Source: Nitrospirota bacterium (GTDB lineage Bacteria > Nitrospirota > Nitrospiria > Nitrospirales > NS-4). Taken from it: a stretch of 57,566 nt of DNA. Below the pieces are notes generated by a model. The model was given only the letters and a program-made list of their open reading frames with translations, had not been told where the DNA came from and made no database searches. Positions 5,234 to 57,566 of this stretch are shown here, piece by piece. The number at the start of each line of letters is the position of its first letter. Within the stretch, counting starts at the first letter, position 1. The DNA is taken from contig SCTG01000101.1 of the NCBI GenBank assembly GCA_004298335.1, positions 1-57,566 of the forward strand, in the 5' to 3' direction. The position numbers and the translations under genes were made by a program.

Positions 5234-5275
5234 GTCTGCGCCTAGCGGGAACGGCAGGGGTCGTTTTTGAGCCGG

Positions 5276-5653: not shown

Positions 5654-5800
5654 CGTAGACACCTTTCGTTCGAGAAGCAAGCGGCAGCAGGGAGAAACGG
5701 CGCGGGATGCTTGGCCGGCGTCGTGCCGGCGTCCCGGGGTATCAATTTGTGCAGTCCTTTTGCAGGAGCTTCGGCGGCCCATTTTTGACAATCTTTCCTC

Positions 5801-5829
5801 TTGCTTTCTTGTGCATCTTTCTGTAGAGT
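5801..5829 (+). promoter_or_regulatory. Candidate sigma70-like promoter, TTGCTT-17-TAGAGT, upstream of the desaturase gene
   Basis: Hexamers at 5801-5806 and 5824-5829 with a 17-nt spacer. This would give a ~125-nt leader. Confidence 0.25.
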
Positions 5830-5958
5830 CAGCCGCGTTTGGCCGCTTCCAGAGGGCCTCTGGTGAGGACGCCGGTTGCGATTGATGGGCCCCGCAGGTT
5901 TCCAGCAACAAGCACACACAATTAAGGCACACGACGGGTCATCCTTGAACGTGAGGGA

Positions 5959-6837
5959 TTGAGAGTGGAGCATGTGATTGGCGCCAAGCAACAGCCGCCG
6001 TCGTTGGATTATCTGTCGCTGGGCTTGTTTTCCCTGGTCGTGGTCACTGCCCTTATAGCCGTTCCCGCTTTCGGGTACTTCATCGGATATACCTGGGTGG
6101 ACTGGGTCTTGCTGGTCATTCTCTACTATGTGTCGGGCATGGGCATTACCGTCGGCTATCACCGTCTGATTTCCCATCGAAGCTTCGAATGCCGGCCCTG
6201 GGTCAAGGTTGCCCTGCTGATTGCTGGGGGGTGGACGCTGGAAAATTCGGCCCTCAAGTGGTGCGCGGACCATATCCGGCACCATGCGCGGTGCGATGAG
6301 GAGGAAGATCCCTATAACGCCACGCGCGGCTTCTGGCACAGCCACCTGCTGTGGGTCTTCTATAAAAGCGATCCGCGCCTGAATGAAAAATACGAGGGCC
6401 CGCTTCGCAAGGACCCCATCGTCATGTGGCAGCACCGGTATTATGTGCCTGTCGTCCTGTCCGGCCTGGTGTTTCCCTTTTTCGTCGGGTACCTCTACAA
6501 CGGGTGGATGAGCGGCCTCGGGTGCTTTCTGCTGGCGGGCGTGGGGCGCACATTCCTGGTCCTGAACTCGACCTTCTGCATCAATTCGGTCTGTCATCTC
6601 TGGGGCGATCAGCCGCATACGTCGGCCGATTCGAGCCGGGACAATTGGGTGGTTTCGCTGCTGACTTTCGGCGAGGGATACCACAATTACCATCATGCGC
6701 ATCAGCGGGATTACCGGAACGGGCCGCGCTGGTACAATTTCGATCCTTCCAAGTGGTTCATCTTCTGCCTGTCCCTGACAGGTATGGCGTCGAACCTCTG
6801 CCGGATTCAGCCCGAGCGGGTCCGGTATCAGGCGTAG
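5959..6837 (+). CDS. Acyl-CoA/acyl-lipid delta-9 fatty acid desaturase (membrane, di-iron)
   Basis: Three histidine boxes: HRLISH, HIRHHARCD and GEGYHNYHHAH. Two hydrophobic hairpins. TTG start at 5959, so the exact start is uncertain. Confidence 0.9.
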   Translation: MRVEHVIGAKQQPPSLDYLSLGLFSLVVVTALIAVPAFGYFIGYTWVDWVLLVILYYVSGMGITVGYHRLISHRSFECRPWVKVALLIAGGWTLENSALKWCADHIRHHARCDEEEDPYNATRGFWHSHLLWVFYKSDPRLNEKYEGPLRKDPIVMWQHRYYVPVVLSGLVFPFFVGYLYNGWMSGLGCFLLAGVGRTFLVLNSTFCINSVCHLWGDQPHTSADSSRDNWVVSLLTFGEGYHNYHHAHQRDYRNGPRWYNFDPSKWFIFCLSLTGMASNLCRIQPERVRYQA

Positions 6838-10813: not shown

Positions 10814-10893
10814 CCGCGGTTTTTGACTTTTCGTTTGTGATCATGCTAGCTTCGGCGCTTATTTTTGCCTAGGGGGAAGGGTCGTAGAGGACG

Positions 10894-20669: not shown

Positions 20670-21031
20670 TGGATGCATTAACACTGTTGCCGGATTATCA
20701 GAAATTGTCCGTTGAATCGCGAAGCCGGCTGGTCATCGTCGCGGCCCAGCGGGCTCGGCAGTTGATGCAGGGCGCCCGCCCTGCGCTGCCGACCAGGCAT
20801 ACCAAGCCCACAACGATTGCGCTGGAGGAAATGCTGAAGGGGAAAATTCACTTCCTCGTCGGCAAAGAGGCTCAAAAGGCCATGAAGGAGGCCCGCAAGC
20901 AACGCGAACGTGAGCTTGAAAAGCTGACCATGGCCCAGGTCGCGGGAGCGGATGCCGCCGAGATCAAGAAGGACCTGAGCGTCGTGGTGGACGACTCTCC
21001 CAAGCCGGCGGAGGCGAGTGAAGACGACTGA
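20669..21031 (+). CDS. rpoZ: DNA-directed RNA polymerase omega subunit
   Basis: SRLVIVAAQRARQLMQGARP core. TAATG overlap with gmk. SD GAAGGAGG 9 nt upstream. Confidence 0.85.
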   Translation: MDALTLLPDYQKLSVESRSRLVIVAAQRARQLMQGARPALPTRHTKPTTIALEEMLKGKIHFLVGKEAQKAMKEARKQRERELEKLTMAQVAGADAAEIKKDLSVVVDDSPKPAEASEDD

Positions 21032-22343
21032 CCGCAACTCCAGGGCGCCGGGCGGGCGCTTTCGGGGGAAGACCATCGTGCTGGGCGTGACGGGGAGCAT
21101 CGCCGCGTACAAGGCGGTGTCGCTCGTGCGCCGTCTCATGGCTGAAGGCGCGGCCGTGCGGGTCGTCATGACGCACAGCGCGCAGCGGTTCGTCGGCCCG
21201 CTGACCTTTGAAGCCGTCACCGGCCACCCGGTCGGTACCGATCTGTTTCCATCGTCCGGTGCAGAGGTGGGTGTGGGAGGGCCGGGTACCCGCCTTGCGG
21301 GTGGAGACGCGGGGCCCCCTCCCACTACGATGGTCATGCCGCATCTCGCGCTGGCGGACTCGGCCGACCTGATCGCGATCGCGCCCGCGTCGGCCCATTG
21401 CGTGGCGAAACTGGCGCACGGACTCGCCGATGACCTGCTCTCCACGCTGGCGCTGGCGGCGGAGTGTCCGATGGTGGTGGCGCCGGCCATGGATGGCGGC
21501 ATGTGGACCCACCCGGCGGTGCGCGACAATGTCTTGACGCTCAGGCGACGCGGCGTCACCGTGCTGGAGCCCGAGACGGGGCCGCTGGCCTCCGGGCAAA
21601 CCGGCAAGGGACGCCTTCCGGAAGAAAACGCGATCCTGTCGGCGATCGCGGGCGCGCTGCATCCGGTGAAGGATTTCAGGGGCCGGCGCGTGCTCGTCAC
21701 GGCCGGGCCGACACAGGAGGCGCTCGACCCCGTCCGGTTCATCTCGAACCGCTCCTCCGGGAAGATGGGCTGGGCGCTTGCCGAAGCCGCGCGCGATCGG
21801 GGAGCCGAGGTGGTCCTGGTTGCGGGTCCCACCGCCCTCCCGCCGGTTTCCAACGTGACCGTCGTGCCGGTCGTGACCTCCGAGGACATGCGGAAGGAAG
21901 TGAGCGCCCGGTTTCTGGGCGCCGATGTTCTCATCATGGCCGCGGCGGTCGCCGACTTCAGGCCCGCCGGGCCTGCCCGCGGAAAAATTCCGAAGGGCCG
22001 CGGGCCGCGGGCGCTGACGCTCGAGCCGACCCCGGACATCCTGATGGATCTGCCGCCGCGCCGGGCCGGCCGGCTCGTCGTGGGCTTTGCGGCCGAGACC
22101 GGCGATCTGGTCGAGCGCGCCCGGGCCAAGCTGCGCCGGAAGGCGCTGGATCTGATCGTGGCCAACGACGTCACGGAGCCGGGGGCCGGGTTCGGCACCG
22201 ACACGAACCGGGCGACCCTGATCGATCGGGCGGGCCGCTGCGATGCGCTGCCGCTCATGTCCAAGCTGGACCTGGCGCATCGGATCCTCGACGCTGTTCT
22301 GGAACTTCCGACTGACCGGCTGCAGAAGGGAGGGACCGACTAA
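21018..22343 (+). CDS. coaBC: Bifunctional phosphopantothenoylcysteine decarboxylase / phosphopantothenate-cysteine ligase
   Basis: GKTIVLGVTGSIAAYK flavoprotein N-domain, PAMDGGMW, and CoaB domain VTAGPTQEALDPVRFISNRSSGKMG. It carries a 21-aa insert encoded by the 63-bp repeat at 21264-21326. Confidence 0.93.
   Translation: MKTTDRNSRAPGGRFRGKTIVLGVTGSIAAYKAVSLVRRLMAEGAAVRVVMTHSAQRFVGPLTFEAVTGHPVGTDLFPSSGAEVGVGGPGTRLAGGDAGPPPTTMVMPHLALADSADLIAIAPASAHCVAKLAHGLADDLLSTLALAAECPMVVAPAMDGGMWTHPAVRDNVLTLRRRGVTVLEPETGPLASGQTGKGRLPEENAILSAIAGALHPVKDFRGRRVLVTAGPTQEALDPVRFISNRSSGKMGWALAEAARDRGAEVVLVAGPTALPPVSNVTVVPVVTSEDMRKEVSARFLGADVLIMAAAVADFRPAGPARGKIPKGRGPRALTLEPTPDILMDLPPRRAGRLVVGFAAETGDLVERARAKLRRKALDLIVANDVTEPGAGFGTDTNRATLIDRAGRCDALPLMSKLDLAHRILDAVLELPTDRLQKGGTD
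21264..21326 (+). repeat. 63-bp palindromic repeat element, copy A, in-frame inside coaBC
   Basis: GAGGTGGGTGTGGGAGGGCCGGGTACCCGCCTTGCGGGTGGAGACGCGGGGCCCCCTCCCACT. 59/63 identical to the reverse complement of 44791-44853. Outer stem GTGGGAGGG/CCCTCCCAC and inner stem ACCCGC-CTT-GCGGGT. Confidence 0.85.
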
Positions 22344-27074: not shown

Positions 27075-27881
27075 TCACTTGCTGCTGACCCAGACCGCCG
27101 CCAGCCCGTCGGCAAAACTGCGCGCTTCCCCGAACTGCGGCTTGATGACGGTCTTCCCGGACTTGTCGATGTAGCCCCATTTGCCGCCGATCTCGACGAG
27201 GGCCAGTCCGTCGGAGGGCGGGGCGGCCCTGTCGAATTGCAACGGGATGACGAGCTTGCCCGTCGTGTCGATGTAGCCCCACTTGCCGCTCATGTCTCTC
27301 ACCGGCGCCAGCCCTTCCGAGAAGCGCTTGGCCCACCCGAACTGCGGCTTGACGGCGAATTTTCCGGTCTGGTCGATATAGCCCCACTTGCCGTTGAAGT
27401 ATTCCACCGGCGCCAGACCTTCGGAGAAGGGGCCGGCGTCTTCAAATTGCGGCGGGATGGCGATCTTCCCGGTCTTGTCGATAAAGCCGATCTTCGAGCC
27501 GAAGCCGTCCTTGACGTCGATCCTGATCGCGGCCAAGGGTTCGGTGAGCGTGTCGGACGACTTGTAGATGATCTTGACCTCCTCGAACTGCGGCGGGATG
27601 GTGACCTTCCCCGTCTTGTCGATGTAGCCCCACTTGCCGTCCTTGCTGATCGCCGCCAGCCCTGCGATAAACGGGCCGGCATCGTCGAACTGCGGCGGGA
27701 TGGCGAACTTCCCCGTCTTGTCGATGTAGCCGACGGTCAATTTCTCGTCTTTCGGATTTTTGGCCTCCTCGGCTTTCGAGCAGCCGACGCCAAGGAGTAA
27801 AAGAACGACCAGGGCGAAGCGGCCCGGAGATCCGAGCGCCGCGGTCGCGGCGAACTGTCGTGTCGTGGTCATGGTGGTCAT
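27075..27881 (-). CDS. WG-repeat (KWG-type) lipoprotein
   Basis: ATG at 27881 with SD AAGGAAGG. Signal peptide plus lipobox LLLLGVGC. About eight repeats of GKWGYIDKTGKxxIPPQFxxAxxFSEGLA. Confidence 0.85.
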   Translation of the reverse strand: MTTMTTTRQFAATAALGSPGRFALVVLLLLGVGCSKAEEAKNPKDEKLTVGYIDKTGKFAIPPQFDDAGPFIAGLAAISKDGKWGYIDKTGKVTIPPQFEEVKIIYKSSDTLTEPLAAIRIDVKDGFGSKIGFIDKTGKIAIPPQFEDAGPFSEGLAPVEYFNGKWGYIDQTGKFAVKPQFGWAKRFSEGLAPVRDMSGKWGYIDTTGKLVIPLQFDRAAPPSDGLALVEIGGKWGYIDKSGKTVIKPQFGEARSFADGLAAVWVSSK

Positions 27882-27979
27882 CCTTCCTTGTGGGGTATAT
27901 ACGGGAAATTGCTTGAGGGCATGGTACGCCAGGGTGAAGAAAATGTCCAGCGATTGCAGAAGCGGGCGGCGCGAAAGGG

Positions 27980-29086
27980 CTAACGTTTGCGCTTGGGCGC
28001 GGTTTTTGGTTTTGACGCGGCCTTGGGTTTGCTGACGGGGGCGGGTTTGGCCGCGGGCGTGGCTTCCAGGGCTTTCAGGCGCGCTTCCATGTCGCGGAGC
28101 TGCTGGCGCAATTCGGGAAGTTTGGCCACGATGGCCATGGACTTGAGCCATTCCAGGCGGGGCTGGGCGGGAGCGCCGGCGACGACTTCCTTGGCCTGGA
28201 CGTCGCGGTTCAGTCCCGACCGCGCCGCGACCATGGCGAGGTCTCCGATCGTGACGTGATCGGAGATGCCGGCCTGCCCGCCGACGATCACGTGGTGCCC
28301 CGTCTTGCTGCTCCCGGCGATCCCGACCTGCGAGACCAGGATATTGTGCTCGCCGATCTCGACGTTGTGGGCGATCTGGACCAGATTGTCCACTTTCGTG
28401 CCCCGGCGGATGACTGTCCTGCCGAACGTGGCGCGATCCACGGTCACGTTGGCGCCGAGCTCGACGTCGTCTTCGATCACGACCGTCCCGACCTGCGGGA
28501 TCTTATGGTGCCGCCCGCCTTCCTGCACGTAGCCGAACCCGTCGCTCCCGACGACCGTGCCTGCGTGGATGATCACGCGGTTGCCGATGGTGACGCCTTC
28601 GCGGATCGTCACGTTGGGATGGATTACGCAGGCCTCGCCGATGACGCTTCCTTCGCCGACGAAGACACCGGGATAGAGGATGCTGCCCCGCCCGATCCGG
28701 GCCCGGTCGTTGAGCGTGACGAACGGCCAGATGGACGCGTCCTCCCCGATGACGATATCGACCCCACGGTGGACGAGGATGCTGAGGCCGAGGGGCAGGC
28801 GATGGGGAACGAAAAACTTCTCCACGACCTGTGCCATGGCCAAGGTGGGGTGGGGGACCACGATCTGGGCGCAGGCGAGGTGCTCGATGCGCTGGGGCAC
28901 CAGCAGGGCGGCCGCCTTGGTGGTCTTCACGTCTTTTGCGGCGGACGCGTCGGCGAGAAACGACAGGTCGCCGGGGCCGGCCTCCTGGAGTCCGGAGACT
29001 CCGGTCGCCACGAGGTCCGGAGAGCCGACCAGCGCCCCCTTCGTGAAGGAGGCGATCTGTTCGAGTGTGACGGCGAAGAGGGCCAT
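27980..29086 (-). CDS. lpxD: UDP-3-O-acylglucosamine N-acyltransferase
   Basis: ATG at 29086 (MALFAVTLEQIA). Left-handed beta-helix hexapeptide repeats, HHKIPQVGTVVIEDDVELGAN. It has a ~35-aa Lys/Pro/Ala-rich C-terminal tail. Confidence 0.9.
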   Translation of the reverse strand: MALFAVTLEQIASFTKGALVGSPDLVATGVSGLQEAGPGDLSFLADASAAKDVKTTKAAALLVPQRIEHLACAQIVVPHPTLAMAQVVEKFFVPHRLPLGLSILVHRGVDIVIGEDASIWPFVTLNDRARIGRGSILYPGVFVGEGSVIGEACVIHPNVTIREGVTIGNRVIIHAGTVVGSDGFGYVQEGGRHHKIPQVGTVVIEDDVELGANVTVDRATFGRTVIRRGTKVDNLVQIAHNVEIGEHNILVSQVGIAGSSKTGHHVIVGGQAGISDHVTIGDLAMVAARSGLNRDVQAKEVVAGAPAQPRLEWLKSMAIVAKLPELRQQLRDMEARLKALEATPAAKPAPVSKPKAASKPKTAPKRKR

Positions 29087-43833: not shown

Positions 43834-43854
43834 GAGCGGGTGTCACCCGCAAGA

Positions 43855-43983
43855 GGCCGGCGCGGGGTGTGCCTCAACCGCGCCCGTAAGCGAGCGGCAT
43901 CTGTTGGGGAACCCGTTGCTCTGCCGATGCAACGGGTCTGAAGGCGCGCGCGCAGGGAGCGAGAGGCACCCCCGCACCGGGCC
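43855..43983. other. 129-nt nested inverted-repeat element (MITE-like or structured RNA) upstream of addB
   Basis: Imperfect ~21-23-nt terminal inverted repeats (GGCCGGCGCGGGGTGTGCCTC / GAGAGGCACCCCCGCACCGGGCC), an inner CGCGCC/GGCGCG helix, and a perfect 9-bp hairpin ACCCGTTGC-9 nt-GCAACGGGT (43911-43937). Confidence 0.5.
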
Positions 43984-44026: not shown

Positions 44027-47000
44027 ATGCTCACTGTCGTCACCGGCCCGTTCCATCCTGATCTCGAAGCCGCCCTCGTCTCGCAAGTCCGATCGCTGAA
44101 ACAGGGCGACCCGCTCGCGCCGCTGGCGATCGTCGTGCCTTCGGCGCAGCTCGCCCGGCGCGTCAAGTGGCTGCTGGCCGTCGAGCAGGGCCTCGCGCTC
44201 CTCGACGTCCATGTCCTGACCTTCCACGATCTTGCCAAGACACTGATCAAAGAAAGCCGGGCGGACCAGCCGGCCGGCGCGGACGGAATCCTCCGGGAGG
44301 AATTGCTGCGCTGCCTCGTCGCGCGGGGCGTGCCCGGCTCAGAAGCCTTCCGCGACTGGGCGAAGATGCGGGGCCTGTGGGGCGGCCTGTGGGCGACCAT
44401 CCAGGACTTGAAGGAGGCGCGGGTGGACCCCGCGTCCGTCCTGTCGGCGGTCGGGGAGAAGCTGTTCGGCTCCGAAGATCCGGAGCGTCTGGCCGCATTG
44501 TTCCGCCTGTACGCCGCCGTCCTGTCGACCGACCGCGATCTCCGCATCGCCGATCCGGACGACCTCGCCACCCTTGCGGTGGAGCAGATTCCGGGATCGA
44601 CGTTTCTCGCGCGGATGCGCCTGGTCTGCTACTACGGGTTTTACGATCTCACGCAGGGGCAGCTCGACCTGTTCAAGGGTGTGGCATCCGCCTGTCCGGC
44701 GATCGTCCTCTTTCCGCTGCGGCGGGAGAGTCCGTCCTATCGGTTCGCGCAGCGGTTCTTTGAAGCCTATATTCAGGGCATGGCCCTGAGAGTGGAAGGG
44801 GGCCCGGCGTCTCCACCCGCAAAGCGGGCACCCGGCCCTCCCACACCCACCTCGTCATCCCTGACCGACGAGATCGCTCCGGCGGTGCGGGGGAATTGCC
44901 GCATCATCAGTACGGTCGGCCCCGAGGATGAAGTGTCAACGGCGGCCAAGGAGATCCTCCGGCTCATTGAAGACCAGGGATTCAATCCGATGGAGATCGG
45001 CGTCGTGGCACGGACGCTGGATTCCTACCTTCCCGTCGTGCGCCGGGTCTTCGAGGAGAACCAAGTGCCGTTTGCCTGCCCGGTGGGAGAGCCGCTTATC
45101 CACGAGCCGCTGGCGAAGACGATCATCCGGTTTCTCCGGCTGCGCGTCGAATCCTTCCCGCGCGCGTCCGTCCTGGACGTAGTGACATCTCCAGTCTTCC
45201 GGCTCGCCTCCATCTTAGTTGAAGGGGGGGGCGAGCTAAACCCGGCGGCTCATCCGGATCAATGGGAATGGATCACGCGGGGGCTGGGGATCACCAGGGG
45301 CGATCCGGCCGATGGGAGTCTCGGCGAATGGCGGCGGCTTGAGCGCGCGATCCAGCCGAGCCTCGAACGGTCCGACAATGGCGATGAGAAGACCGATCCC
45401 GGACAGGCACTGGTGACGAAACAGATGCGCCTGCTCTGGGCGCTCGTGCAGAAGCTCCACGCCGACCTGTCGTCGCTGCCCGCCCGCGCGAGCTGGGGCG
45501 AGTACACGGAACAGTTCGTCCGCCTGCTGCCGAAGTATTTCGATCTGCCGGCCTGGAGCGACGCGCAGCAGGCCGCCCATGACGAGTCTGTGCAGGCGGC
45601 GATCCGCGGATGTCTGGATTCCGTCAAAAAGTTGGAGGTGCTGGGCGAGGAGGTCTCCCTCAAAGACTGGACCGACCTGATGGTCCGGGCGTTGGAGCGC
45701 GCGCGACTGCTGTCGGAGACGCACCAGCAGGCGGGCGTGCAGGTCCTCGACGCCATGGGTGCGCGGGGAGTGCCCTTTCGCGCCCTGTTTGTCCTCGGCC
45801 TCAACGAAAAAGTTTTTCCCCGCTCGATCCGCGAGGATGCGTTGCTGCGCGACGCCGACCGGGAGGTGCTGGCCCGCGATCTCGGTTTCAAAATTCCGCT
45901 CAAGCTGGACGGGTTCGAGGAAGAGCGGCTGTTGTTCGCGCTGCTGCTCCGATCCGCGAAAGAGCGGCTCTCTCTCAGCTATCAGCGCGCCGACCGCGCG
46001 GGCCGGACGCTGGTGCCTTCGGGGTACCTCATCGAGCTTCAGCGCGAGATGGGGAGCGAGCGGGAACGAAGGATCAAACGGCGGCCGAGCGAGCGGTGGG
46101 CCGAGTGGCCCTACGAGCCCCTGCTCCTGACCGCGCGCGAGATGGGTCTGCACATGATCCTGCGCGACGGGTCGGTTCGCGCCGCCTGGCACGCGCTGTA
46201 CGCCGAGCCGGAGTTGCTGGCGCAGGGAGTGAGCGCGCTGCAGGGACTGGAATCGGCGAAAGCCGGCCTGACGCCATATGACGGGCTGGTCGGTCCGGTC
46301 GCGTCCCATTGGGGCATGCTGGAACGTCGCGGCGCGGCGCCGACCTCGCTGGAGCGCTACGCGCAGTGCCCCTTCCGGTACTTCGCCGAGCGGGTGCTCA
46401 AGCTGCAGCCGCTGGAGGCGCCGGAGTCCGTGGTGGAACTCGACGCCCGTTCGCGCGGCGAACTCTGCCATGCCATGCTGCGCGCCTTCCACGAGCGGCT
46501 GAAGCGGGACGGCCGGCCCATTGCCGAAGTGAGTACCGACGACGCGGTGCGCCTGCTGGCCGACGTCGCGCCACAAGTTTTTGCCGAATACGAGGAGGAC
46601 AACTGGGTGGGCTATCCGCTCCTGTGGGCGCTGGCGCGGGAGGAGGTCCTGTGGCTCGTCGAACAGCTTGTACGGGAGGACCTCCGGGAACTGCGGCTGA
46701 GCGGCTACGTCCCCACGCTGTTCGAAGTCGAAGCCAAGGGCCGGTTCGACTCGAACCTGCCGGCTCCGCTGCAAGCGATCCCGGTCCGGGGAATCCTGGA
46801 TCGCGTGGATGCGCGGAAGGACAACGGGCGCACCGTCCTCCGTGTCGTGGACTACAAGTACACGCAGGCGCCGGTGTTGAAGGACCGGGACCTGGCGACG
46901 GCCGCACTGCGGGGATTCCGTCTCCAGCCGCCGCTCTATCTCCTGGCGGCGAAAGAGGTGCTGGGAGAGCCGGCCGTGCCGGAGTCCGCCGCCTTTTATT

Positions 47001-47344
47001 TCCTCGCGCCCAACCGGCGGGACGGGCCGGTGGACCGGAGCCAGCTGGATGCGTCTTGCTGGGCGGGTGAATCTGGCGTGCGTCTCGGACGCACGCTGAC
47101 GCTCATCCTGGACGGCATCAGGGCCGGCCGATTCTTCATCCTGCCGGGCGGCCACTGCGACCACTGCGAGTACTCCGAGGTCTGCCGCCGCCATCACAAT
47201 CAAAGCTGGTGGCGCGCGCGCGGCGACGAGTCCCGCAAGGCGCTCGAGGGCCTGCACGCGCTGAAGGCGCCCAAGGCCGACGCGAAGACGGAGAATGCGG
47301 AGGCGGGGACGGGCAAGAAGGAAAGGAAGAAGCGCGGTGGCTGA
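44027..47344 (+). CDS. addB: AddB-type helicase-nuclease subunit (PD-(D/E)XK nuclease with Fe-S staple)
   Basis: 1105 aa. C-terminal nuclease with YAQCPFRYF, GILDRVD, VVDYKY and CDHCEYSEVC (four Cys iron staple). Overlaps addA by 8 nt. Contains the 63-bp repeat (21-aa insert). Confidence 0.85.
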   Translation: MLTVVTGPFHPDLEAALVSQVRSLKQGDPLAPLAIVVPSAQLARRVKWLLAVEQGLALLDVHVLTFHDLAKTLIKESRADQPAGADGILREELLRCLVARGVPGSEAFRDWAKMRGLWGGLWATIQDLKEARVDPASVLSAVGEKLFGSEDPERLAALFRLYAAVLSTDRDLRIADPDDLATLAVEQIPGSTFLARMRLVCYYGFYDLTQGQLDLFKGVASACPAIVLFPLRRESPSYRFAQRFFEAYIQGMALRVEGGPASPPAKRAPGPPTPTSSSLTDEIAPAVRGNCRIISTVGPEDEVSTAAKEILRLIEDQGFNPMEIGVVARTLDSYLPVVRRVFEENQVPFACPVGEPLIHEPLAKTIIRFLRLRVESFPRASVLDVVTSPVFRLASILVEGGGELNPAAHPDQWEWITRGLGITRGDPADGSLGEWRRLERAIQPSLERSDNGDEKTDPGQALVTKQMRLLWALVQKLHADLSSLPARASWGEYTEQFVRLLPKYFDLPAWSDAQQAAHDESVQAAIRGCLDSVKKLEVLGEEVSLKDWTDLMVRALERARLLSETHQQAGVQVLDAMGARGVPFRALFVLGLNEKVFPRSIREDALLRDADREVLARDLGFKIPLKLDGFEEERLLFALLLRSAKERLSLSYQRADRAGRTLVPSGYLIELQREMGSERERRIKRRPSERWAEWPYEPLLLTAREMGLHMILRDGSVRAAWHALYAEPELLAQGVSALQGLESAKAGLTPYDGLVGPVASHWGMLERRGAAPTSLERYAQCPFRYFAERVLKLQPLEAPESVVELDARSRGELCHAMLRAFHERLKRDGRPIAEVSTDDAVRLLADVAPQVFAEYEEDNWVGYPLLWALAREEVLWLVEQLVREDLRELRLSGYVPTLFEVEAKGRFDSNLPAPLQAIPVRGILDRVDARKDNGRTVLRVVDYKYTQAPVLKDRDLATAALRGFRLQPPLYLLAAKEVLGEPAVPESAAFYFLAPNRRDGPVDRSQLDASCWAGESGVRLGRTLTLILDGIRAGRFFILPGGHCDHCEYSEVCRRHHNQSWWRARGDESRKALEGLHALKAPKADAKTENAEAGTGKKERKKRGG
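44791..44853 (-). repeat. 63-bp palindromic repeat element, copy B, in-frame inside addB in inverted orientation relative to copy A
   Basis: The reverse complement is 59/63 identical to 21264-21326. It is translated here as ...VEGGPASPPAKRAPGPPTPTS... Confidence 0.85.
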
Positions 47345-50300
47345 GATTCGCGACGCGCAGGCGCGGACGCTGGCCGAGACGACGTTCGACCGGAACGTGG
47401 CCGTGACGGCCGGCGCCGGCACCGGCAAGACGACGCTGCTGGTGGAGCGGCTGGTCCACCTGATCGTGAAGTCCCCTGATCCGGTGCCGGTTCCTGAAAT
47501 CGTGGCGCTGACCTTCATGATCAAGGCCGCGAACGAGATCAAGATCCGCCTGCAGGAACGGTTGCTCGAGCTAGCTACCCGGCCCGGGGACGCGACGGAT
47601 CTGCTGGAACGCTACAGGCTGTCCTCCTCGGAACTCGCCGCGCGGGCGGCGGCGGCCGTCCTGGACGTGGAGCGCAGCCAGATCGGCACCATTCATAGCT
47701 TTGCCGCGCATCTGCTCCGGCTCTATCCGGTCGAGGCCGGCGTGGACCCCGGGTTTGAACCGGACGAGGGCGTCGGCTTCGAAGAGCACTTCCAGCGCGA
47801 GTGGGAGCGATGGCTGGACGACGAGCTCGGTGCCGGCGGGCGCCGGCACGACGTGTGGAGACGGGTGCTCCGGCGGGTCGCCGTCACGGAGCTCCGCGAG
47901 TTCGCCCGCGCGCTGGTCAAGGACCTGGTTCCCCTCGAAGACCTGGCCGAACAGGTGCGGGACCCGTCGCTATCGCCGTCGTTAAGGACGTGGCTGCAGG
48001 AGAAGCGGGCACGCGCAAACGAGTTGTCGACGGCTTATCTGAAAGAAGAGAAGGCGCCGCGCCAGGTCGAAAAACTTCTGGCCGCCGCGCGGTCCTGCTT
48101 CGACCTGGTCCTCGCGCGCGGCGCGCCGGGCATCAAGTTGCTGGATGGAGAGACGGCCGCGTTGCTGGACGAGAAAAACCCGGGATCGAAGCCGCCGGTC
48201 GGCTGGGACAAGCGGGACTTCGACGAGGCGGGGCGGATTATCCAGACGGCCAGGGCCGTGCTCAGGACCGACCACGAGTACTTCCGCGACGCGCTGGCGA
48301 TCCTGGGGCCGTTCGCCGAAAGCTGCCGGCGGCGCTTTCTGGAGGCGGGGTCCGTTACGTTCGATGGTTTGCTCGCGCGCGCCCGCGACCTGCTGCGCGA
48401 CCACCCGGGCATCCGTGAACGGCTCAAGCACCATTTCAAGGCAATCCTGGTGGACGAGTTCCAGGACACCGATCCGGTCCAGTACGAAATCATGTTGTTT
48501 TTGTGCGAGCGGCCGGGCCGGTCCGCATCAGACTGGCAGGACGTGCAGATGGAACCGGGGAAGCTGTTCATCGTCGGTGATCCCAAGCAATCCATTTTTG
48601 CGTTCCGCCGGGCCGACATTGAAGCGTTCCAGGAAGTGACCGCGCGGGTACTGGCGCAGGGAGGGTTGCCACTCACCCTGACCACGAATTTCCGCAGTCA
48701 CGCGTCGATCCTGGCGACGGTCAACGGACTGTTCGGGCGCCTGCTGGCGGAAGGCCGCGGCCCCCAACCGCCCTATCACGCCCTCGATCCCCAGCCGGAC
48801 CGCCGGACCGGCGCCGGCACGCAGGGCGTCGCGCTCCGGCTCGTCGCGCCGGATCACGACGATGAAGAGAGCGAGGACCTGAACGCGCCGCAAGCCGTGC
48901 GCGCCGAGGCGGAGGCGCTCGCCCGCTGGTTGAAGTCCGAGGTAATAGGCAAGGAAGTCCTCACGAACCGGGACGGGCCTCCGCGCAAGGTCGAGCCCGG
49001 CGACGTCGCGCTCCTGTTCCGGACCTTCACCCAGAGCCGCGATTATCTCGAGGCGCTGCGCCGGCACGGACTCTCCTACGTCGCGGAAGGGGAGAAGCAT
49101 TTCTACCGGCGGCAGGAGGTGATCGATCTCGTCAATCTCCTGCGCTGCGTCAGACATCCCGACGATCAGGTGGCGCTGGCGGGCCTGCTGCGCTCGGCGC
49201 TCGGCGCGCTCACGGACCGCGAACTCGCCGAGCTGGTCGCCTTGCGGGCGCTGGACTATCGTAATGGCGGGCCTCCCGAACTGGACCGGCACCCCAGGGC
49301 CTTGCACCTGCGGCGGCTCTACGCCGCGCTTGAATCATTGCACCGGGACTGTCCCATGAAGCCGCTTCCCGATGCGCTGGACCTCATATTCGCGCGGCTC
49401 CCGGTCCTGGAACTCGCGGCCGCGTCGTTGCACGGCGAGCAGGCCGCGGCGAATCTCTGGAAGATCCGGGATCTGTCGGAAGACCTGGCCGCCGATCCCG
49501 ACATGACGCTGGCGGGCTTCGTGGAACTGCTGGCCGCGCGGATCGCCGATCCTCCCGAAGAGACCGAGAGCGGGCTGGCGGAGGAGTCGCTCGAGGCCGT
49601 GCGGGTGTTGAGCATTCACAAGGCCAAGGGACTGGAGTTCCCCATCGTTGTCCTGGTCGGGATGCACGCGGGCACGCTCTCGCAGCGCGACCCGATCCAG
49701 GTCCTGCACGATTGGTCCACGGGCGTGGCCGGCATCCGTCTCGGCCCGACCGGCACGCTGGGCGGCCTGTTCGCGTCGGAGAAGCTCGAAGCCCGGACGG
49801 TTGCCGAGCAGCGACGCCTGCTGTATGTCGGCATGACCAGGGCCAAGGAGCGGCTTGTCCTTTCGGGCGCGCTGACCGGCCGGTCTTCCACCGGCAATTT
49901 TCTCTCGCTGCTCAGGGACATCATTGGAGAGGATGTCGGCAGCCGGGCGGTAGCAGAGCTGTCGGTGGGGGAGGGCCGCATTGCGCAGGTCGTCCTTCCC
50001 GCCGACGAAGGCCGGCCGCGTGAGCGGGCGGCGAAGGAGCGAGCGATCCAGTCCGCCGACGATCTGCCGGGCTTCGAGTCACGCAGCCGGGCGCGCGCTG
50101 AGCGCTGGACGCAATGCCGTGAACAGCCGACTTGCCTGACGCCGTCCGGACTCGAAGAGTCCCCCCAACGCATCTCCACCGCAGTGACCCCTGCGTGTGC
50201 CATGGCTGTCGGGAACCTTGTTCATAAAATGCTTGAGATAGTGAGTTATCGAGATAAAGCTTATGTCATGCTTGAAGAATTAGATCGAAGCGCCGTACGC

Positions 50301-50693
50301 TGGATCTCGGAAGAGCTCAAGGGGAAGTCTGCGGAGATAGTCAAGGAGGCCCGCGCTGTGCTGGAGACCTTTGCACAATCGGAAGCCTGTGCCGAATTGC
50401 GCGACGCCACGATTCTGGGACGCGAGGTACCGTTCATGATGAAGTGGCCGGGGCCTCCTCCAACTATGATGGAAGGGCGCATTGACCTGCTCTATGAAAA
50501 GGATGGCGGGTTGTGGGTGGCGGATTACAAGACGGACCGCATTACCGAGGCCGAGGTGGCCGGGCGCATGGAAACCTACCGGCCGCAGGCCGAAGTCTAT
50601 ACGAAAGCCGTCAGGCAAGCGTTCGGGCACAGCCCCGCTGGGTTCAAGTTTATCTTTCTCCGGCTGGGCAAGAGCGTGCCGCTTCCGCTATAG
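47337..50693 (+). CDS. addA: AddA-type UvrD/Rep helicase-nuclease subunit
   Basis: GTG at 47337. Walker A AGAGTGKTT, DEFQDTDP, FIVGDPKQSIFAFRRAD, HKAKGLEFP, LLYVGMTRAK, and C-terminal PD-(D/E)XK (RIDLLYEKDGGLWVADYKTD). Confidence 0.9.
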   Translation: MAEIRDAQARTLAETTFDRNVAVTAGAGTGKTTLLVERLVHLIVKSPDPVPVPEIVALTFMIKAANEIKIRLQERLLELATRPGDATDLLERYRLSSSELAARAAAAVLDVERSQIGTIHSFAAHLLRLYPVEAGVDPGFEPDEGVGFEEHFQREWERWLDDELGAGGRRHDVWRRVLRRVAVTELREFARALVKDLVPLEDLAEQVRDPSLSPSLRTWLQEKRARANELSTAYLKEEKAPRQVEKLLAAARSCFDLVLARGAPGIKLLDGETAALLDEKNPGSKPPVGWDKRDFDEAGRIIQTARAVLRTDHEYFRDALAILGPFAESCRRRFLEAGSVTFDGLLARARDLLRDHPGIRERLKHHFKAILVDEFQDTDPVQYEIMLFLCERPGRSASDWQDVQMEPGKLFIVGDPKQSIFAFRRADIEAFQEVTARVLAQGGLPLTLTTNFRSHASILATVNGLFGRLLAEGRGPQPPYHALDPQPDRRTGAGTQGVALRLVAPDHDDEESEDLNAPQAVRAEAEALARWLKSEVIGKEVLTNRDGPPRKVEPGDVALLFRTFTQSRDYLEALRRHGLSYVAEGEKHFYRRQEVIDLVNLLRCVRHPDDQVALAGLLRSALGALTDRELAELVALRALDYRNGGPPELDRHPRALHLRRLYAALESLHRDCPMKPLPDALDLIFARLPVLELAAASLHGEQAAANLWKIRDLSEDLAADPDMTLAGFVELLAARIADPPEETESGLAEESLEAVRVLSIHKAKGLEFPIVVLVGMHAGTLSQRDPIQVLHDWSTGVAGIRLGPTGTLGGLFASEKLEARTVAEQRRLLYVGMTRAKERLVLSGALTGRSSTGNFLSLLRDIIGEDVGSRAVAELSVGEGRIAQVVLPADEGRPRERAAKERAIQSADDLPGFESRSRARAERWTQCREQPTCLTPSGLEESPQRISTAVTPACAMAVGNLVHKMLEIVSYRDKAYVMLEELDRSAVRWISEELKGKSAEIVKEARAVLETFAQSEACAELRDATILGREVPFMMKWPGPPPTMMEGRIDLLYEKDGGLWVADYKTDRITEAEVAGRMETYRPQAEVYTKAVRQAFGHSPAGFKFIFLRLGKSVPLPL

Positions 50694-54314: not shown

Positions 54315-55148
54315 ATGCTGACGCCGACCCGATGGACCCAATTCACCTCCTGGTGGCGCCAGGCCGCCAAGCGCCTGGGCGTGGAGCCCCAGTGCGAGGC
54401 CTTTCTCTCTCCGGAGTCAGGCGGGATGGAAGCCCTCATGAAGGTCGCCGGTGCGCAGGGAGACCTCGATTACGTACTGTTCGTGCTGCTCCGGTACTGG
54501 GTGCCGCCCATCCTGCCGCCGGCGGGCAGGGAGCGCATGGCGAAGGGCGACGCCGACTACTGGATCGAGTCGGAGCGGGTCCTCAAGCAGGCCGTGAATC
54601 GGCTGCGCGAGCTCCGTCCCTTCCTGCAGATGCTCACGGAGTCGCATCCCGACCCCAATCCGCAACCGTCCGCGCCGCCGTCGCAGGCGGACAGCGCCTC
54701 GCCGCCAGAGCTGGATCTGTCGGCGCTGCTCGAGGGGATCGCCGAGGCGGCGGGCAGGCTCGGGGGGCCGGATTACACCTCCGTCGTCAAGAGCCTCAAC
54801 TCCACGCCGTTCCGCCAGGTCGTCCACTTCCGGCACAACAAGAAGCACAGCACCGAAGTGTGGGTGGTCTTCCTGCTCAAGGAGCACCTGCGGTCGCTGG
54901 GGCTGGGCAAGGACCGGGCCTGGCCGATCGTGTGCGACGTGGTGACGGCGGCCGGCGTGCGCAACGCGGAGGGCGAGCCGTACCAGCCCGACGAGCTCAA
55001 GTCCTGGTGGACGAAGCAGTGGCCGCGGTCCTACGCACTGCTCACCGCCAAGGACGCCTCCGTCCAGCTCAGCGAGTCCGCCTACCAGAGCGACTACCAG
55101 TGGTTCCAGGCGTGGATGGCCCACCAACTCGAAACGCAACGCGAGTGA
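54315..55148 (+). CDS. Hypothetical 277-aa protein, translationally coupled to the downstream TPR lipoprotein
   Basis: ATG at 54315 (MLTPTRWTQFTSWW). Trp-rich termini and a central Pro/Ser linker. No family recognised. Its stop overlaps the next start (GTGA). Confidence 0.55.
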   Translation: MLTPTRWTQFTSWWRQAAKRLGVEPQCEAFLSPESGGMEALMKVAGAQGDLDYVLFVLLRYWVPPILPPAGRERMAKGDADYWIESERVLKQAVNRLRELRPFLQMLTESHPDPNPQPSAPPSQADSASPPELDLSALLEGIAEAAGRLGGPDYTSVVKSLNSTPFRQVVHFRHNKKHSTEVWVVFLLKEHLRSLGLGKDRAWPIVCDVVTAAGVRNAEGEPYQPDELKSWWTKQWPRSYALLTAKDASVQLSESAYQSDYQWFQAWMAHQLETQRE

Positions 55149-57566
55149 AGATTTTCTTTGTCGCGTGCGTGCTGGCGCTTGTCGTGACGGCGGGCTGCGA
55201 CTTCAAGCTCACGCCGAAGAGGCCGGTTGCCGATCTTCCGCCTCCCGCAAGCTCGGAAAAAACCAACGAGCTGGTCGAGCTCAACCGAAAGGTGCAGGAA
55301 CTCCAGCAGGACGGACGATATGCCGAGGCGATTCCGCCCGCGCAGCGGGCCGCCGAGCTGTACGAGCAGCACCTGGGGCCCGAGCATCCCTATACGGCCA
55401 CGGCGGTGACGACCCTGGCGGAGCTCTACCGCGCGAACGGGGAGTACGCCAAGGCAGAGCCGCTGTTCCAGCAGGTGCTGGCCGTCCGTGAAAAAACGCT
55501 CGGGACCGGCCACCCCGACGTGGCGGAGGTGCTGAACGCTCTGGGGCTTTTGTATGCCGCCGCCGGCGACTACGCTAAGGCCGAGCCCACGTACCGGCGC
55601 GCGCTGGCCATCCGGGAAAACGCCCAGGGGGGCGGCCATCCCGACGTGGCGACCGCTCTGAACAATCTGGCGTTGCTGTACGATGCGACCGGCAATCCCA
55701 CCAGGGCCGAACCGCTCTATCAGCAGGCGCTGGCCATTCGCGAGCAGGCGCTCGGCCGCGAGCACCCGCTCGTCGCAGTCGTGCTGAACAACCTGGCCGT
55801 GTCGCTCGACGCGACCGGCAGTCCCGCCAAGGCCGAGCCCCTGCACCAGCAGGCGCTGGCCATCCGCGAGAAAGCGTTCGGGCCGAACCATCCCGATGTG
55901 GCCGCGTCGCTGAACAACCTGGCGGATCTGTACCGCGTCGGCGGCAACTTCAAGAAAGCCGAGCCCCTGTATCAGCGGGCGCTGGCCATTCGCGAGCGGG
56001 CGCTCGGCCCCGGACACCCCGATGTCGCGACGACGCTGCACAACCTCGCGGAGCTGTACCGTGCGAATGGGAACGGCGGCAAAGCCGAGCCCCTGTATCA
56101 GCGGGCGCTGGCCATCCGCGAGCAGGCGCTCGGCCCCGAGCACCCGAAAACCGCCGCCACGCTCGGCAGCCTGGGCGCGTTGTATGCGGGCAGGGGCGAC
56201 TTCGCAAAGGCGGAGTCCGCGTACCGGCGGGCGCTGGCCATCCGGGAGAAGGCGAAGGGCGCCGACCACCCGGATGTCGCCGTCGCGGCCGGCGATCTGG
56301 CGGCGCTCTATAAAAAAGCCGGGGACTACGGGCAGGCGGAACCCCTGTATCGCCGGGCGCTCAGGATTCAGGAAAAGGCGCTCGGCCCCACCCATCGCAA
56401 TTTGGTGGCGCCGCTCACCAACCTGGCGTCGCTGTATGAAGCCGCCGGGAACTACGAGAAGGCGGAGCCGCTGTACCAACGGGTGCTGGAGATTCACGAG
56501 AAGGTGTTCGGCTCCGAGCATCCCAAGGTGGCGGCCGACCTGAGCAACCTCGGCTCGCTGTCCGCCGCCCTCGGGAATACCGGGAAGGCCGAATCTTTTT
56601 ACCGTCGGGCGCTGGACGTGCGCGAGAAAGTCCTCGGCACCGGCCATCCCAGCGTCGCGACCGAACTGAATAACCTGGCCGCGCTCTATCGCGAGAGAGG
56701 AGACCGCGCGAAGGCGGAGTCCCTGGTGAAACAGGCGCTGGAGATCGATGAGCTATCGCTCGGCCCCAACCATCCCAACGTGGCGACCGACCTGAGCAAC
56801 CTGGCTGCGCTCTATCGCGATGCGGGGAACGATGCGCGGGCGAAGCCGCTGTTGCGGCGGGCGTTGACGATCGATGAGGCCGCGCTCGGGCCGGCCCATC
56901 CCACGACGGCGGCCTCGCTCTATAACCTGGCGCAGTTGTACCAGTCCATGGGGGAGAGCGCGAGCGCGACGCCGCTGTTCCGCCGCGCGCTCGCGATCCA
57001 GGAACAGACATGGGGATCCGGCCATCCGGAGACGGTGGACGCGCTCGGCAGCCTCGTTGCGGTCTATAAGGCCGCCGGGGAGTTCGCGAAGGCCGAACCG
57101 CTGGCCCGGAGGCTGCTGCTGATCAGGGAGAAGACCGTCGGTCCCGACCATCCCGCGGTGGCGCAGGCGCTCATCATGCTCGCGGGGCTTGCCGCCTCGC
57201 AGCAGCACTATCAGGAGGCGGCCGGCCTGTTCAAGCGGGGGCTTGCGCTCCAGGAGAAACAGCTTCGAAACGGCGTTTCCGTTCTGGAGGACGCGCAACG
57301 GCCGGCGCCCGTCCGTTCCCTGTCCGGAGACCTGTTCATGTCCCTCTCGCTGATCCAGCAGCACCTGAAGGGGGATCCGGGTGCGGCACGGGACGGGCTG
57401 GAACTGGTGTTGCGCCGCAAGAAGGCCGGCCTGGACGCGGAGTTCTGGGCCAGCGAGGAGATGCGGGACCGGTTGCCCGCGGAGGCCGGGCGCGAGTGGC
57501 GGGAGCTCGAGGCGGCGCGCGGCGAACTAGCGCGGCTCGTCCGTCACAAGCCGGGGCGGATGGGCT
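55145..57566 (+). CDS. Lipoprotein with ~15 TPR (TPR_12-like, 42-aa) repeats, 3'-truncated by the window; probably the N-terminal part of a TPR-CHAT-type protein
   Basis: Not in the supplied ORF track because there is no stop in the window. GTG at 55145: VKIFFVACVLALVVTAGC (lipobox), then repeats of AEPLYQRALAIREKALGPxHPDVATxLNNLAxLY. I checked the frame by hand at 55145, 55955 and 56621. The tail (LELVLRRKKAGLDAEF...) resembles pre-CHAT regions, from memory. Confidence 0.85.
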   Translation, partial: MKIFFVACVLALVVTAGCDFKLTPKRPVADLPPPASSEKTNELVELNRKVQELQQDGRYAEAIPPAQRAAELYEQHLGPEHPYTATAVTTLAELYRANGEYAKAEPLFQQVLAVREKTLGTGHPDVAEVLNALGLLYAAAGDYAKAEPTYRRALAIRENAQGGGHPDVATALNNLALLYDATGNPTRAEPLYQQALAIREQALGREHPLVAVVLNNLAVSLDATGSPAKAEPLHQQALAIREKAFGPNHPDVAASLNNLADLYRVGGNFKKAEPLYQRALAIRERALGPGHPDVATTLHNLAELYRANGNGGKAEPLYQRALAIREQALGPEHPKTAATLGSLGALYAGRGDFAKAESAYRRALAIREKAKGADHPDVAVAAGDLAALYKKAGDYGQAEPLYRRALRIQEKALGPTHRNLVAPLTNLASLYEAAGNYEKAEPLYQRVLEIHEKVFGSEHPKVAADLSNLGSLSAALGNTGKAESFYRRALDVREKVLGTGHPSVATELNNLAALYRERGDRAKAESLVKQALEIDELSLGPNHPNVATDLSNLAALYRDAGNDARAKPLLRRALTIDEAALGPAHPTTAASLYNLAQLYQSMGESASATPLFRRALAIQEQTWGSGHPETVDALGSLVAVYKAAGEFAKAEPLARRLLLIREKTVGPDHPAVAQALIMLAGLAASQQHYQEAAGLFKRGLALQEKQLRNGVSVLEDAQRPAPVRSLSGDLFMSLSLIQQHLKGDPGAARDGLELVLRRKKAGLDAEFWASEEMRDRLPAEAGREWRELEAARGELARLVRHKPGRMG

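Follow-up and report, generated by a model that had tools for sequence, protein, structure and literature searches.

A small GC-rich hairpin-forming repeat of a Nitrospirota lineage lies in frame in addB

Intragenic REPs with a GTAG or CGTC tag were described by Di Nocera et al. (2013, BMC Genomics 14:522, PMC3733652). In these repeats the GTAG tag degenerates to GTRG or GTGG, some families are as small as 20-100 units or fewer, and a subset of the units lies within ORFs, adding 14-34 amino acids to the proteins. The host genes often belong to repair or replication, such as uvrA/B/D, recBCD and dnaE2 (PMC3733652). Nitrospirota has 0 occurrences in the main text of that paper. The Rickettsia palindromic elements RPE-1 to RPE-10, reported by Ogata et al. 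(2000) and summarised in PMC10969869, are AT-rich, about 100-150 bp long and restricted to Rickettsia, each family having one conserved peptide and one orientation. Here, the analysis of a 57,566-nt stretch of Nitrospirota DNA (the window) revealed that a 63-bp segment of addB truly belongs to a family of small hairpin-forming repeats found in Nitrospirota. The family is new but its kind, that of intragenic REP-like or RPE-like repeats, is not, as intragenic REPs, many of them in repair genes, have been known since 2013.

The addB segment, named copy B, has the sequence AGTGGAAGGGGGCCCGGCGTCTCCACCCGCAAAGCGGGCACCCGGCCCTCCCACACCCACCTC and keeps the reading frame of its host (Table 1). Codon 255 (AGA, Arg) ends at base 44791; the AddB translation here reads ...ALRVEGGPASPPAKRAPGPPTPTSSSL..., the element giving the peptide (R)VEGGPASPPAKRAPGPPTPT(S). 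Pairwise alignment of the core with the reverse complement of copy A, the same element in coaBC, revealed 59 identical bases out of 63. The G-rich strand is the sense strand in copy A, which encodes the peptide EVGVGGPGTRLAGGDAGPPPT, and the C-rich strand is the sense strand of addB in copy B. Among the inverted repeats of the window the longest, of 77 nt and 88% complementarity, joins 21264-21340 to 44777-44853. The 23-mer CCCGGCCCTCCCACACCCACCTC, common to both copies, is present at exactly two places in the window, where 100 shuffles gave an expectation of 0. An earlier note on this DNA had described copy B as a second, inverted copy of the coaBC element, in frame from codon position 3, in a poorly conserved part of AddB and with four differences from copy A, and our analysis bore out all of these points. 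The differences fall at positions 25, 31, 48 and 58 (copy-A orientation). The changes at 25 and 58 make G.T pairs, as the note had said of one strand; this is true of the G-rich strand, and on the C-rich strand they make A.C mismatches. These are two events only, each with a 50% chance of favouring a given strand. Folded as single-stranded DNA, the G-rich strand of copy B reaches -17.7 kcal/mol (z -2.2) and the sense strand -12.3 kcal/mol (z -0.5).

Table 1. Positions of the repeat copies, their parts and their host genes in the window.
Feature	Position	Strand	Remark
coaBC (dfp), host gene of copy A	21018..22343	+	
Copy A, same composite element, inverted, in frame in coaBC	21264..21326	-	Alignment and covariance model R1
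Solo inner-hairpin copy ACCCGTTGC-TCTGCCGAT-GCAACGGGT	43911..43938	.	0 expected by chance
addB, host gene of copy B; AddB-like helicase-nuclease subunit	44027..47344	+	Pfam and PDB match
Copy B, 63-bp composite palindromic repeat in addB	44791..44853	+	Codon 255 position 3 to codon 276 position 2
Copy B, conserved 5' module AGTGGAAGGGGGCC	44791..44804	+	Family alignment
Copy B, variable middle, type d	44805..44835	+	Nested inner hairpin, then ACCCGG
Copy B, conserved 3' module CCCTCCCACACCCACCTC	44836..44853	+	Outer stem 3' arm and unpaired tail ACCCACCTC
addA, UvrD/PDDEXK gene downstream of addB	47295..50693	+	Up to three family insertion sites in related genomes
Probable decayed half-copy in addA, GGGCCTCCTCCAACT (+ strand), peptide GPPPT	50451..50465	-	Position and 12/15 match

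The addB ORF is assigned by Pfam to PDDEXK_1 (1.4e-33), with a weak match to ADDB_N, and it matches B. subtilis AddB (PDB 3U44_B); the AddB-like protein carries four invariant C-terminal Cys residues. In an AlphaFold2 model residues of about 255-276 appear as a coil flanked by confident helices, with pLDDT values under 50, so the copy B peptide is predicted to be a disordered loop that separates two folded domains. AddB orthologues have no fewer than three unrelated kinds of sequence at this site, and the linker is variable in all AddB homologues. The AddB tree places the window allele amid relatives of 80-86% identity that carry an unrelated 16-residue linker. The element replaces a linker of 45-48 nt rather than being a plain addition. 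The linker of the closest orthologues (L136 and L137) was also considered as a decayed element and rejected, since its alignment was no better than that of shuffles (p = 0.13 and 0.81).

Alignment of the family revealed two conserved ends, (A)GTGGGAGGGGGCC at the 5' side and CCCTCCCACACCCAC(CTC) at the 3' side, which pair into a stem of 9-10 bp around a variable middle and leave an unpaired 3' tail of 6-9 nt. The 5' module of copy B departs from the consensus by G>A at 44796. The 5' start is mostly GTGG, with GTAG in L011 AddA site 1 and GCGG or GAGG elsewhere, and it is paired with CCAC of the 3' arm. The elements are 42, 45, 63, 72-75 or 102 bp long with 75% GC, and every length among the intragenic ones is divisible by 3. 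The short units of 42-45 bp consist of a 10-bp stem and an inner stem of 2-4 bp, which fits a REP-type short imperfect palindrome. The 63-bp form is a composite, with an outer hairpin and a shortened second hairpin nested in its loop; in copy B this inner hairpin is ACCCGC-AAA-GCGGGC at 44815-29. The 72-75 bp variants carry the module ACCCGTTGC...GCAACGGGT-ACCCG, to which the middle of copy B is related in a shortened form, and an intermediate form was found at L145 AddA site 2. The 63-bp element of the earlier note is a real repeat, though one variant of a modular composite family and no fixed unit.

Exactly delimited elements out-fold their shuffles with z of -2.2 to -5.7, and among 15 short copies 91% of the stem cells are paired against 46-66% in slid controls. 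In these copies 12 cells in 4 pairs have changed on both sides, and 0 of 500 shuffles came up to these values. Compensatory stem changes can also come from intrastrand template switching in quasi-palindromes, without selection. Windows of 86 nt around the copies, folded as RNA, gave no significant z-scores, and a search of the whole window against Rfam gave no match at gathering thresholds. The G-rich strand carries a canonical G-quadruplex motif as read from its letters, GGGTGTGGGAGGG..GGG.

The distribution of the family was traced with an 18-mer. A scan of 185,579 species genomes gave 15 matches, of which 6 had the 5' module upstream and were counted as true copies, and all 6 were found in Nitrospirae or Nitrospirales MAGs. 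Metagenome contigs added at least 11 further true copies among the matches listed, most rows of that scan being chance matches or an unrelated AT-rich repeat; no abundance figure is derivable from it. In viral contigs the 18-mer had a single chance match, which lacked the 5' module, and two other patterns had no match. A covariance model, R1, built from short copies of other genomes only and with the window copies left out, recovered both copy A (41.5 bits, E 2e-6) and copy B (32.1 bits, E 2e-4). All true copies found outside the window lie in Nitrospirota MAGs and metagenome contigs. The in-frame hosts are CoaBC, AddB, AddA (three sites) and Lhr, and two intergenic clusters were also found; a search with the concatenated element peptides for further host proteins gave one insignificant match. 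The same DNA ends occur at no fewer than six unrelated sites and the copies are dispersed over at least eight; the loci were ascertained by the exact 18-mer or by orthology to two host genes, so that the site counts and the conservation of the 3' module are biased, and comparing that module with its flanks is circular for loci found by that very 18-mer. Both orientations relative to transcription occur. Long ORFs contain 6 of the 6 true copies of the genome scan and 10 of the 11 among the metagenome matches listed, the intergenic clusters in L046 and L145 being a minority, so the family is not predominantly extragenic as REPs are. Tandem arrays are present in L007 (3 units), L011 AddA site 2, L046 (3-4 units) and L145 (2 units), a clustering like that of REPs. 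The copy number is apparently low, with 1-2 exact 18-mer matches per representative MAG and 2 copies in 57.6 kb.

Comparison of the orthologous sites provides an unusually complete natural record of empty sites, sites filled with four middle types, half-deleted sites and clean losses. In CoaBC the element is absent from outgroups of 58-72% identity; within the clade, filled sites (types a, b, c and d), remnants of the 5' or the 3' side only and clean empties were all found, and tip P0186 has the element inside an otherwise empty clade. The type-d middle is shared by both window copies and otherwise unseen, the orthologous sites of relatives having type a, b or c; L108, with flanks 91.5% identical, still has a type-b middle. 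Four CoaBC orthologues agree with the window at 13 of 13 positions of the 5' module, against only 79-82% identity in their flanks. In addA the half-copy candidate stands directly before the MMEGRIDL motif, where L011, L104, L123 and L139 have full elements. It is probably a decayed remnant, a reading that would be weak on the sequence match alone, and R1 gave no match there up to E 1.

The inner hairpin also occurs by itself. The solo copy in the window lies between genes, at a distance of 90 nt upstream from the start of addB, and further solo copies were found in L007 and L012. At AddA site 1, L048 and L104 have flanks 96.4% identical, yet one of them carries a 45-bp unit, and in the other an inner hairpin of 36 nt sits in the loop of that same unit. 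These unequal alleles together with the solo copies indicate nesting and mobility, and insertion into the loop of a hairpin is directly evidenced by the second hairpin nested there.

Traces of a mobilizing enzyme were looked for at the locus. No transposase, HUH nuclease or recombinase was found by Pfam among about 43 window ORFs or beside the L046 intergenic cluster. An IS110-family gene lies near addB in L145. The junctions of the sites showed no consistent target-site duplication (TSD) or flanking motif at any site, contrary to what is expected of MITEs. CCATCGT/ACGATGG around copy A and CCCTGA, present twice near copy B, were considered as duplications and discarded, as neither recurred at other sites.

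Similar to intragenic REPs, the Nitrospirota element folds as a short stem-loop that is GC-rich and ends in a brief unpaired tail, and its units stand singly, in tandem or in groups as well as in intergenic clusters, with a subset in ORFs and with repair genes often among the hosts. Its 5' GTGG (GTAG in one copy) may correspond to the degenerate form of the REP tag. In contrast to REPs, whose tag is unpaired, its GTGG is base-paired in the stem, its detected copies are mostly intragenic, apparently few and without a linked RAYT, and a second hairpin family nests in its loop. With the RPEs it shares the nature of a palindromic selfish repeat in frame in unrelated ORFs, the RPE hosts being housekeeping genes with insertions at surface-exposed sites compatible with the fold. 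It differs from them in its size of 42-102 bp, its 75% GC and its use of both orientations, which gives two different peptides, so that neither the size nor the single peptide of an RPE applies; in sequence the two are apparently unrelated. MITEs are likewise short and non-autonomous with terminal inverted sequence, and some form in-frame fusions, whereas the Nitrospirota element has no TSD and is as a whole essentially one hairpin. Elhai et al. reportedly described in 2008 the SDRs or mini-MITEs of cyanobacteria, very short hairpin repeats in genes, in tandem and nested (cited in PMC3116915 and PMC5861425). These are alike in nesting, tandem arrangement and genic position and differ in sequence and phylum, and the likeness is given here as a lead.

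We consider it likely that the addB segment belongs to a dispersed repeat of a Nitrospirota lineage whose copies are small, GC-rich and able to form hairpins, and that it is a passenger, REP-like in kind and RPE-like in its in-frame habit. Copies would survive where they fall in a flexible surface loop with a length divisible by three and no stops, and would there add a Gly/Pro-rich peptide; nothing intrinsic would make the element "coding". The spread may be due to a trans-acting enzyme that works on the hairpin, to copy-to-copy conversion or to both, and the enzyme would most plausibly be a RAYT or another HUH-type single-strand DNA transposase, as proposed for REPs. For the host proteins the element is presumably a neutral or nearly neutral passenger. 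The lack of an enzyme and of a TSD in the data, the apparently low copy number, the mostly intragenic position of the detected copies and the replaced AddB linker were counted against this explanation. The earlier note had gone further in suggesting an element selected to be tolerated in coding DNA, a view that our results do not establish. Both copies lack stops in all six frames, and so do about 21% of shuffles matched for composition and 14% of all 63-mers in the window (65% GC); six-frame openness was therefore rejected as a mark of selection, being frequent at such GC. Intergenic copies exist in L046 and L145, and multiple-of-three lengths are expected anyway because filtering at the level of the host leaves those survivors.

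A functional reading, in which a domesticated hairpin or the G-rich strand with its G4 motif acts in DNA or RNA and is retained by selection, could involve transcription or translation pausing or the marking of repair-helicase genes, and we regard it as quite unlikely. The intact 5' module amid diverged flanks, the compensatory stem changes and the G4 motif would agree with it, as would the striking frequency of repair helicase-nucleases (AddA, AddB and Lhr) among the hosts, a bias also seen in REPs (PMC3733652). Against this, loss of the element, complete or of one half, has occurred at the same site in many lineages with nothing taking its place, both orientations to transcription are used, the sense strand of copy B has lost most of its hairpin stability, no terminator-like or promoter-like feature of the element was found, and the conservation of the 3' module is partly ascertainment by the 18-mer scan; large multidomain repair proteins are simply rich in tolerant linkers. 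Old immobile insertions kept similar by gene conversion or template switching among few copies, with no transposition and no dedicated enzyme, are unlikely. Such a history could explain why the type-d middle is confined to the two window copies with L108 at type b, why middle types are shuffled among sites and close relatives, and why neither a transposase nor a TSD was found. The conserved ends of 13-19 bp are, however, short for RecA-dependent conversion, the AddB tree requires several independent acquisitions at one position or the import of an allele, P0186 is filled within an empty CoaBC clade, and the inner hairpin is insertion-like in standing alone at unrelated places and nesting in loops.

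It is also doubtful that the conserved end modules are recombination or homing sites, so that loops in essential and repair ORFs would be rewritten by a hairpin-directed, frame-preserving exchange of the middle cassette; if this were true, a second hairpin repeat would target the loop of the first, with a possible preference for repair helicase-nuclease genes. An ordinary lineage-specific Gly/Pro-rich AddB linker, resembling coaBC by protein convergence or GC-rich chance, would be in keeping with a region that is variable in all AddB homologues and with the frequency of GC-rich low-complexity sequence in a window of 65% GC. It is very improbable, and the reverse-complement DNA identity refutes it: the copies encode different peptides and still agree in 59 of 63 bases, the shared 23-mer occurred twice in 0 of 100 shuffles, and the same ends recur at unrelated sites. 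The probability of an assembly or chimera artefact is negligible. Nothing speaks positively for it, although the window, whose AddB stands on a single contig of 57,566 nt, apparently comes from a metagenome-type assembly and no isolate genome matched the 18-mer; both host ORFs stay open, and it is ruled out because independent MAGs and metagenomes, which come from different studies, have related elements at precisely these codons.

In practice, such repeats may produce spurious low-complexity "domains", inflate protein divergence and potentially cause recombination or assembly breaks in MAGs. With this finding Nitrospirota, a phylum to which the main nitrite oxidisers belong, joins the lineages with small palindromic repeats in protein-coding genes, and the unexplained bias of palindromic repeats towards DNA-repair helicase-nucleases is seen here again.

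An inverted-repeat search of the window (65% GC) returned as its longest inverted repeat, 77 nt and 88% complementary, a pair of sequences lying in addB (copy B) and coaBC (copy A). Alignment of their cores revealed 59 identical bases of 63, with differences at positions 25, 31, 48 and 58 (copy-A orientation), in agreement with the earlier note. The feature is real and reproducible. A 23-mer common to both copies occurs exactly twice in the window, compared with none in 100 shuffles. No further full copy was found in the window, even with R1, a covariance model derived from 15 short copies in other genomes, which scores the window copies at 41.5 and 32.1 bits.

The protein encoded by the host ORF of copy B contains four invariant Cys residues and matches B. 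subtilis AddB (PDB 3U44_B), and an AddA-like gene follows. Copy B starts at the third base of codon 255 and remains in frame, as had been claimed, encoding (R)VEGGPASPPAKRAPGPPTPT(S). In the AlphaFold2 model of this AddB (mean pLDDT 81.8), residues 255-275 are predicted with pLDDT below 50 as a coil between confident helices, and this modelled low-confidence coil is exactly the repeat-encoded peptide.

A scan for the exact 3' 18-mer, with one genome per species, gave 15 places. In six of these, each in a Nitrospirae MAG, the 5' module lies at the expected spacing; the other matches are due to chance. Metagenomes yielded at least 11 further true copies among the matches listed, and looser searches of the fetched loci (L-numbered MAG or metagenome contigs) enlarged the family to some 26 distinct sequences. 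Every locus with a true copy, like every named AddB homologue, belongs to a Nitrospirota, Nitrospirae or Nitrospirales MAG; the nearest relatives are about 87-89% identical in DNA sequence. All family sequences share the 5' end (A)GTGGGAGGGGGCC and the 3' end CCCTCCCACACCCAC, usually followed by CTC. The outer stem is formed by GTGGGAGGGG paired with CCCCTCCCAC, leaving ACCCAC(CTC) unpaired, and encloses a middle of four types. A form intermediate between types c and d is found in L145 at AddA site 2. A repeat with a similar hairpin and the same tail (..cagcGGGAGGGGGCaacCCCCCTCCCACACCCACCTCcagcacgg..) was also seen in AT-rich metagenome contigs of GC 0.39-0.49 (L018, L035, L056, L057, L060, L087, L091, L096, L097, L120 and L124); it is apparently unrelated to the Nitrospirota element and probably belongs to the repeats of a host genome. 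The two repeat arrays of the window are ordinary protein repeats; orthologues of the TPR-repeat-type ORF in L137 and L144 match TPR_12/TPR_10.

Features of the repeat family and neighbouring repeats (window coordinates unless a locus is named)
Feature	Position	Strand	Details
Copy B	44791-44853	+	in addB; AGTGGAAGGGGGCCCGGCGTCTCCACCCGCAAAGCGGGCACCCGGCCCTCCCACACCCACCTC
Copy A, partner of copy B	21264-21326	-	in coaBC
addB-like host ORF of copy B	44027-47344		PDDEXK_1 at 1e-33; ADDB_N weak
Solo inner hairpin	43911-43938		intergenic, 90 nt upstream of addB start; ACCCGTTGC-TCTGCCGAT-GCAACGGGT
Small hairpin	43836-43850		GCGGGTgtcACCCGC; after stop codon of gene upstream of addB
addA segment	50451-50465		GGGCCTCCTCCAACT; peptide GPPPT, just before MMEGRIDL
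7-bp outer inverted repeat, coaBC	21241-21247; 21327-21333		CCATCGT; ACGATGG
Extra bases beyond core, coaBC	21327-21335		ACGATGGTC; peptide TMV
Repeat array, 126-nt period	55407-56966		TPR-repeat-type ORF 54332-57565
Repeat array, 102-105 nt period	27081-27742		WG_beta_rep protein 27075-28151 (minus strand)
CoaBC site			one common codon position; window, L003, L006, L012, L108, L131
AddB linker			window, L139, L027, L011, L114
AddA, three sites			L011, L048, L104, L114, L123, L139
Lhr helicase, three tandem units	L007 4371-4530		in frame in ORF 1730-6442 (minus strand)
Intergenic cluster, 3-4 units	L046 1788-2058		just downstream of 429-aa 4Fe-4S dicluster protein gene
CCCTCTCCCCTCACGAGGGGAGAGGG repeat, AddB linker	L144 ~4240-4300; L145 ~10760-10830		other Nitrospirota
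IS110-family transposase gene	L145 9067-9843		PF02371; DEDD_Tnp_IS110 weak; immediately upstream of addB
Middle type a			ccgcagacgc; 42-bp element
Middle type b			13-nt mini-hairpin, e.g. cCACCcaaGGTGc or cGCGaaaCGCg; 45-bp element
Middle type c			catcACCCGTTGC-loop-GCAACGGGTacccgcgc; elements of 72-75 bp
Middle type d, window's own form			ACCCGC-AAR-GCGGGY-ACCCGG; 63 bp

Comparison of close relatives revealed different middles at one identical site. At AddA site 1, where the flanks of L048 and L104 are 96.4% identical, L048 carries a 45-bp type-b unit and L104 the same unit with the loop replaced by a 36-nt inner hairpin. In coaBC, type b of L108 stands against type d of the window with flanks 91.5% identical; type d is common to both window copies, and no other genome showed it at the orthologous sites. 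The inner hairpin, ACCCGTTGC...GCAACGGGT, also forms a repeat family in its own right: solo copies were found in Lhr of L007, at two places in L012 and upstream of addB in the window, the last with arms identical to those in the 72-75 bp variants. The 63-bp "element" is thus a composite, in which a shortened inner unit sits within the loop of an outer one. The best explanation for this nesting is that the inner unit was inserted into the loop, that copies exchanged sequence, or a combination of the two. The 102-bp copy of L007 has a type c middle with both arms duplicated; the symmetry of this duplication (ACCCGTTGC x2 ... GCAACGGGT x2) suggests hairpin-templated duplication.

As single-stranded DNA, elements cut to their precise limits form more stable folds than shuffles: copy A has z of -3.1 and -2.6, the G-rich strand of copy B has -2.2, and types a, b and c have -3.1, -2.6 and -5.7, respectively. 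In the alignment of the 15 short copies, 91% of cells are paired, whereas slid partners reach only 46-66%, and four pairs (12 cells) have changed on both sides (U-A/C-G, G-C/A-U, C-G/U-A, C-G/G-C); none of 500 shuffles reached these pairing and covariation values. Template-switch mutation in quasi-palindromes can yield paired changes without selection, and therefore the covariation shows that the hairpin is maintained, not why. The G-T-pair changes noted earlier correspond to two A.C mismatches of copy B on the addB sense strand, where the hairpin is lost (z -0.5); with two events only, this loss is not significant.

Copies in genuine genes are always in frame, with a length that is a multiple of three. 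The sense strand is G-rich in CoaBC, AddA sites 1 and 2 and Lhr (peptide EVGVGG...GPPPT), and C-rich in AddB (RVGGGP...PPTPT). The earlier proposal that the element was selected to be tolerated in coding DNA is not supported by its openness in six frames, since openness of this kind occurs in 21% of shuffled sequences and in 14% of the window's 63-mers. Between genes, clusters are found in L046, where the neighbouring dicluster gene may be NxrB-like (domains shown, Fer4 only), and in L145 between lnt and a 2-hydroxyacid dehydrogenase gene. The addA segment of the window looks like a decayed half-element, the same site being fully occupied in L011, L104, L123 and L139.

CoaBC outgroups (58-72% identity) lack the element and show 3-5 residues in its place. 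Alleles within one clade are mixed, and each of the four middle types is represented among the filled ones. In this clade, remnants retain the G-strand 5' half only (L142, EVGVGG-GGV) or the other end only (L143 and L141, SNA-PPTKMV; DNA ...AAT/GCCCCTCCCAC/GAAG...), and short alleles read, for example, ESS-MPHL (L146) and APDAG-LPHL (L140). This pattern fits insertion at the clade base, then decay and loss. One tip of the tree that carries the element, P0186, lies within an otherwise empty group. Filled coaBC alleles carry about 9 bases beyond the core compared with empty alleles. The outer inverted repeat around copy A was not seen elsewhere and may be a coincidence. In AddB, the segment is neither universal nor a conserved domain, because the site is hypervariable and differently filled among orthologues. 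Family-1 alleles (those of this repeat) occur at three separate tips of the window's sub-clade and are common in a sister clade. The closest relatives of the window (80-86% identity) have an unrelated linker of 16 aa that is conserved in several sub-clades; a relation to the element was rejected, as the DNA similarity is not significant. Other orthologues carry at the same spot another hairpin repeat, CCCTCTCCCCTCACGAGGGGAGAGGG (peptide LSPxEGRGKGEG), and the linker is therefore a hot spot occupied by at least two families of repeats.

All genes of the window are housekeeping genes, and Pfam revealed no transposase, HUH nuclease or recombinase in the window or beside the L046 cluster. No target-site duplication or common flanking motif was found at the junctions. 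L145 carries an IS110-family transposase gene; REP-like hairpins are known targets of IS110/IS1111 elements. By analogy with REPs, the most plausible agent would be an enzyme that works in trans on single-stranded DNA and recognises the hairpin, and conversion between copies may contribute.

REPs inside genes, GTAG- and CGTC-tagged, have been described by Di Nocera et al. 2013 (PMC3733652), whose main text does not mention Nitrospirota; as dimers or groups they encode 20-30 aa, their tags may decay to GTGG, and some families number under 100 units. The classic example of in-frame repeats is that of the RPEs of Rickettsia (PMC10969869). The Nitrospirota family behaves like both. It departs from the REP definition in being mainly intragenic among the copies detected and apparently low in copy number, and no linked RAYT was found in the window or beside the L046 cluster. 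The repeat is a new family of an already known kind, in-frame intragenic repeats; its nested two-tier architecture and the repeated rewriting of the same loops are worth following.
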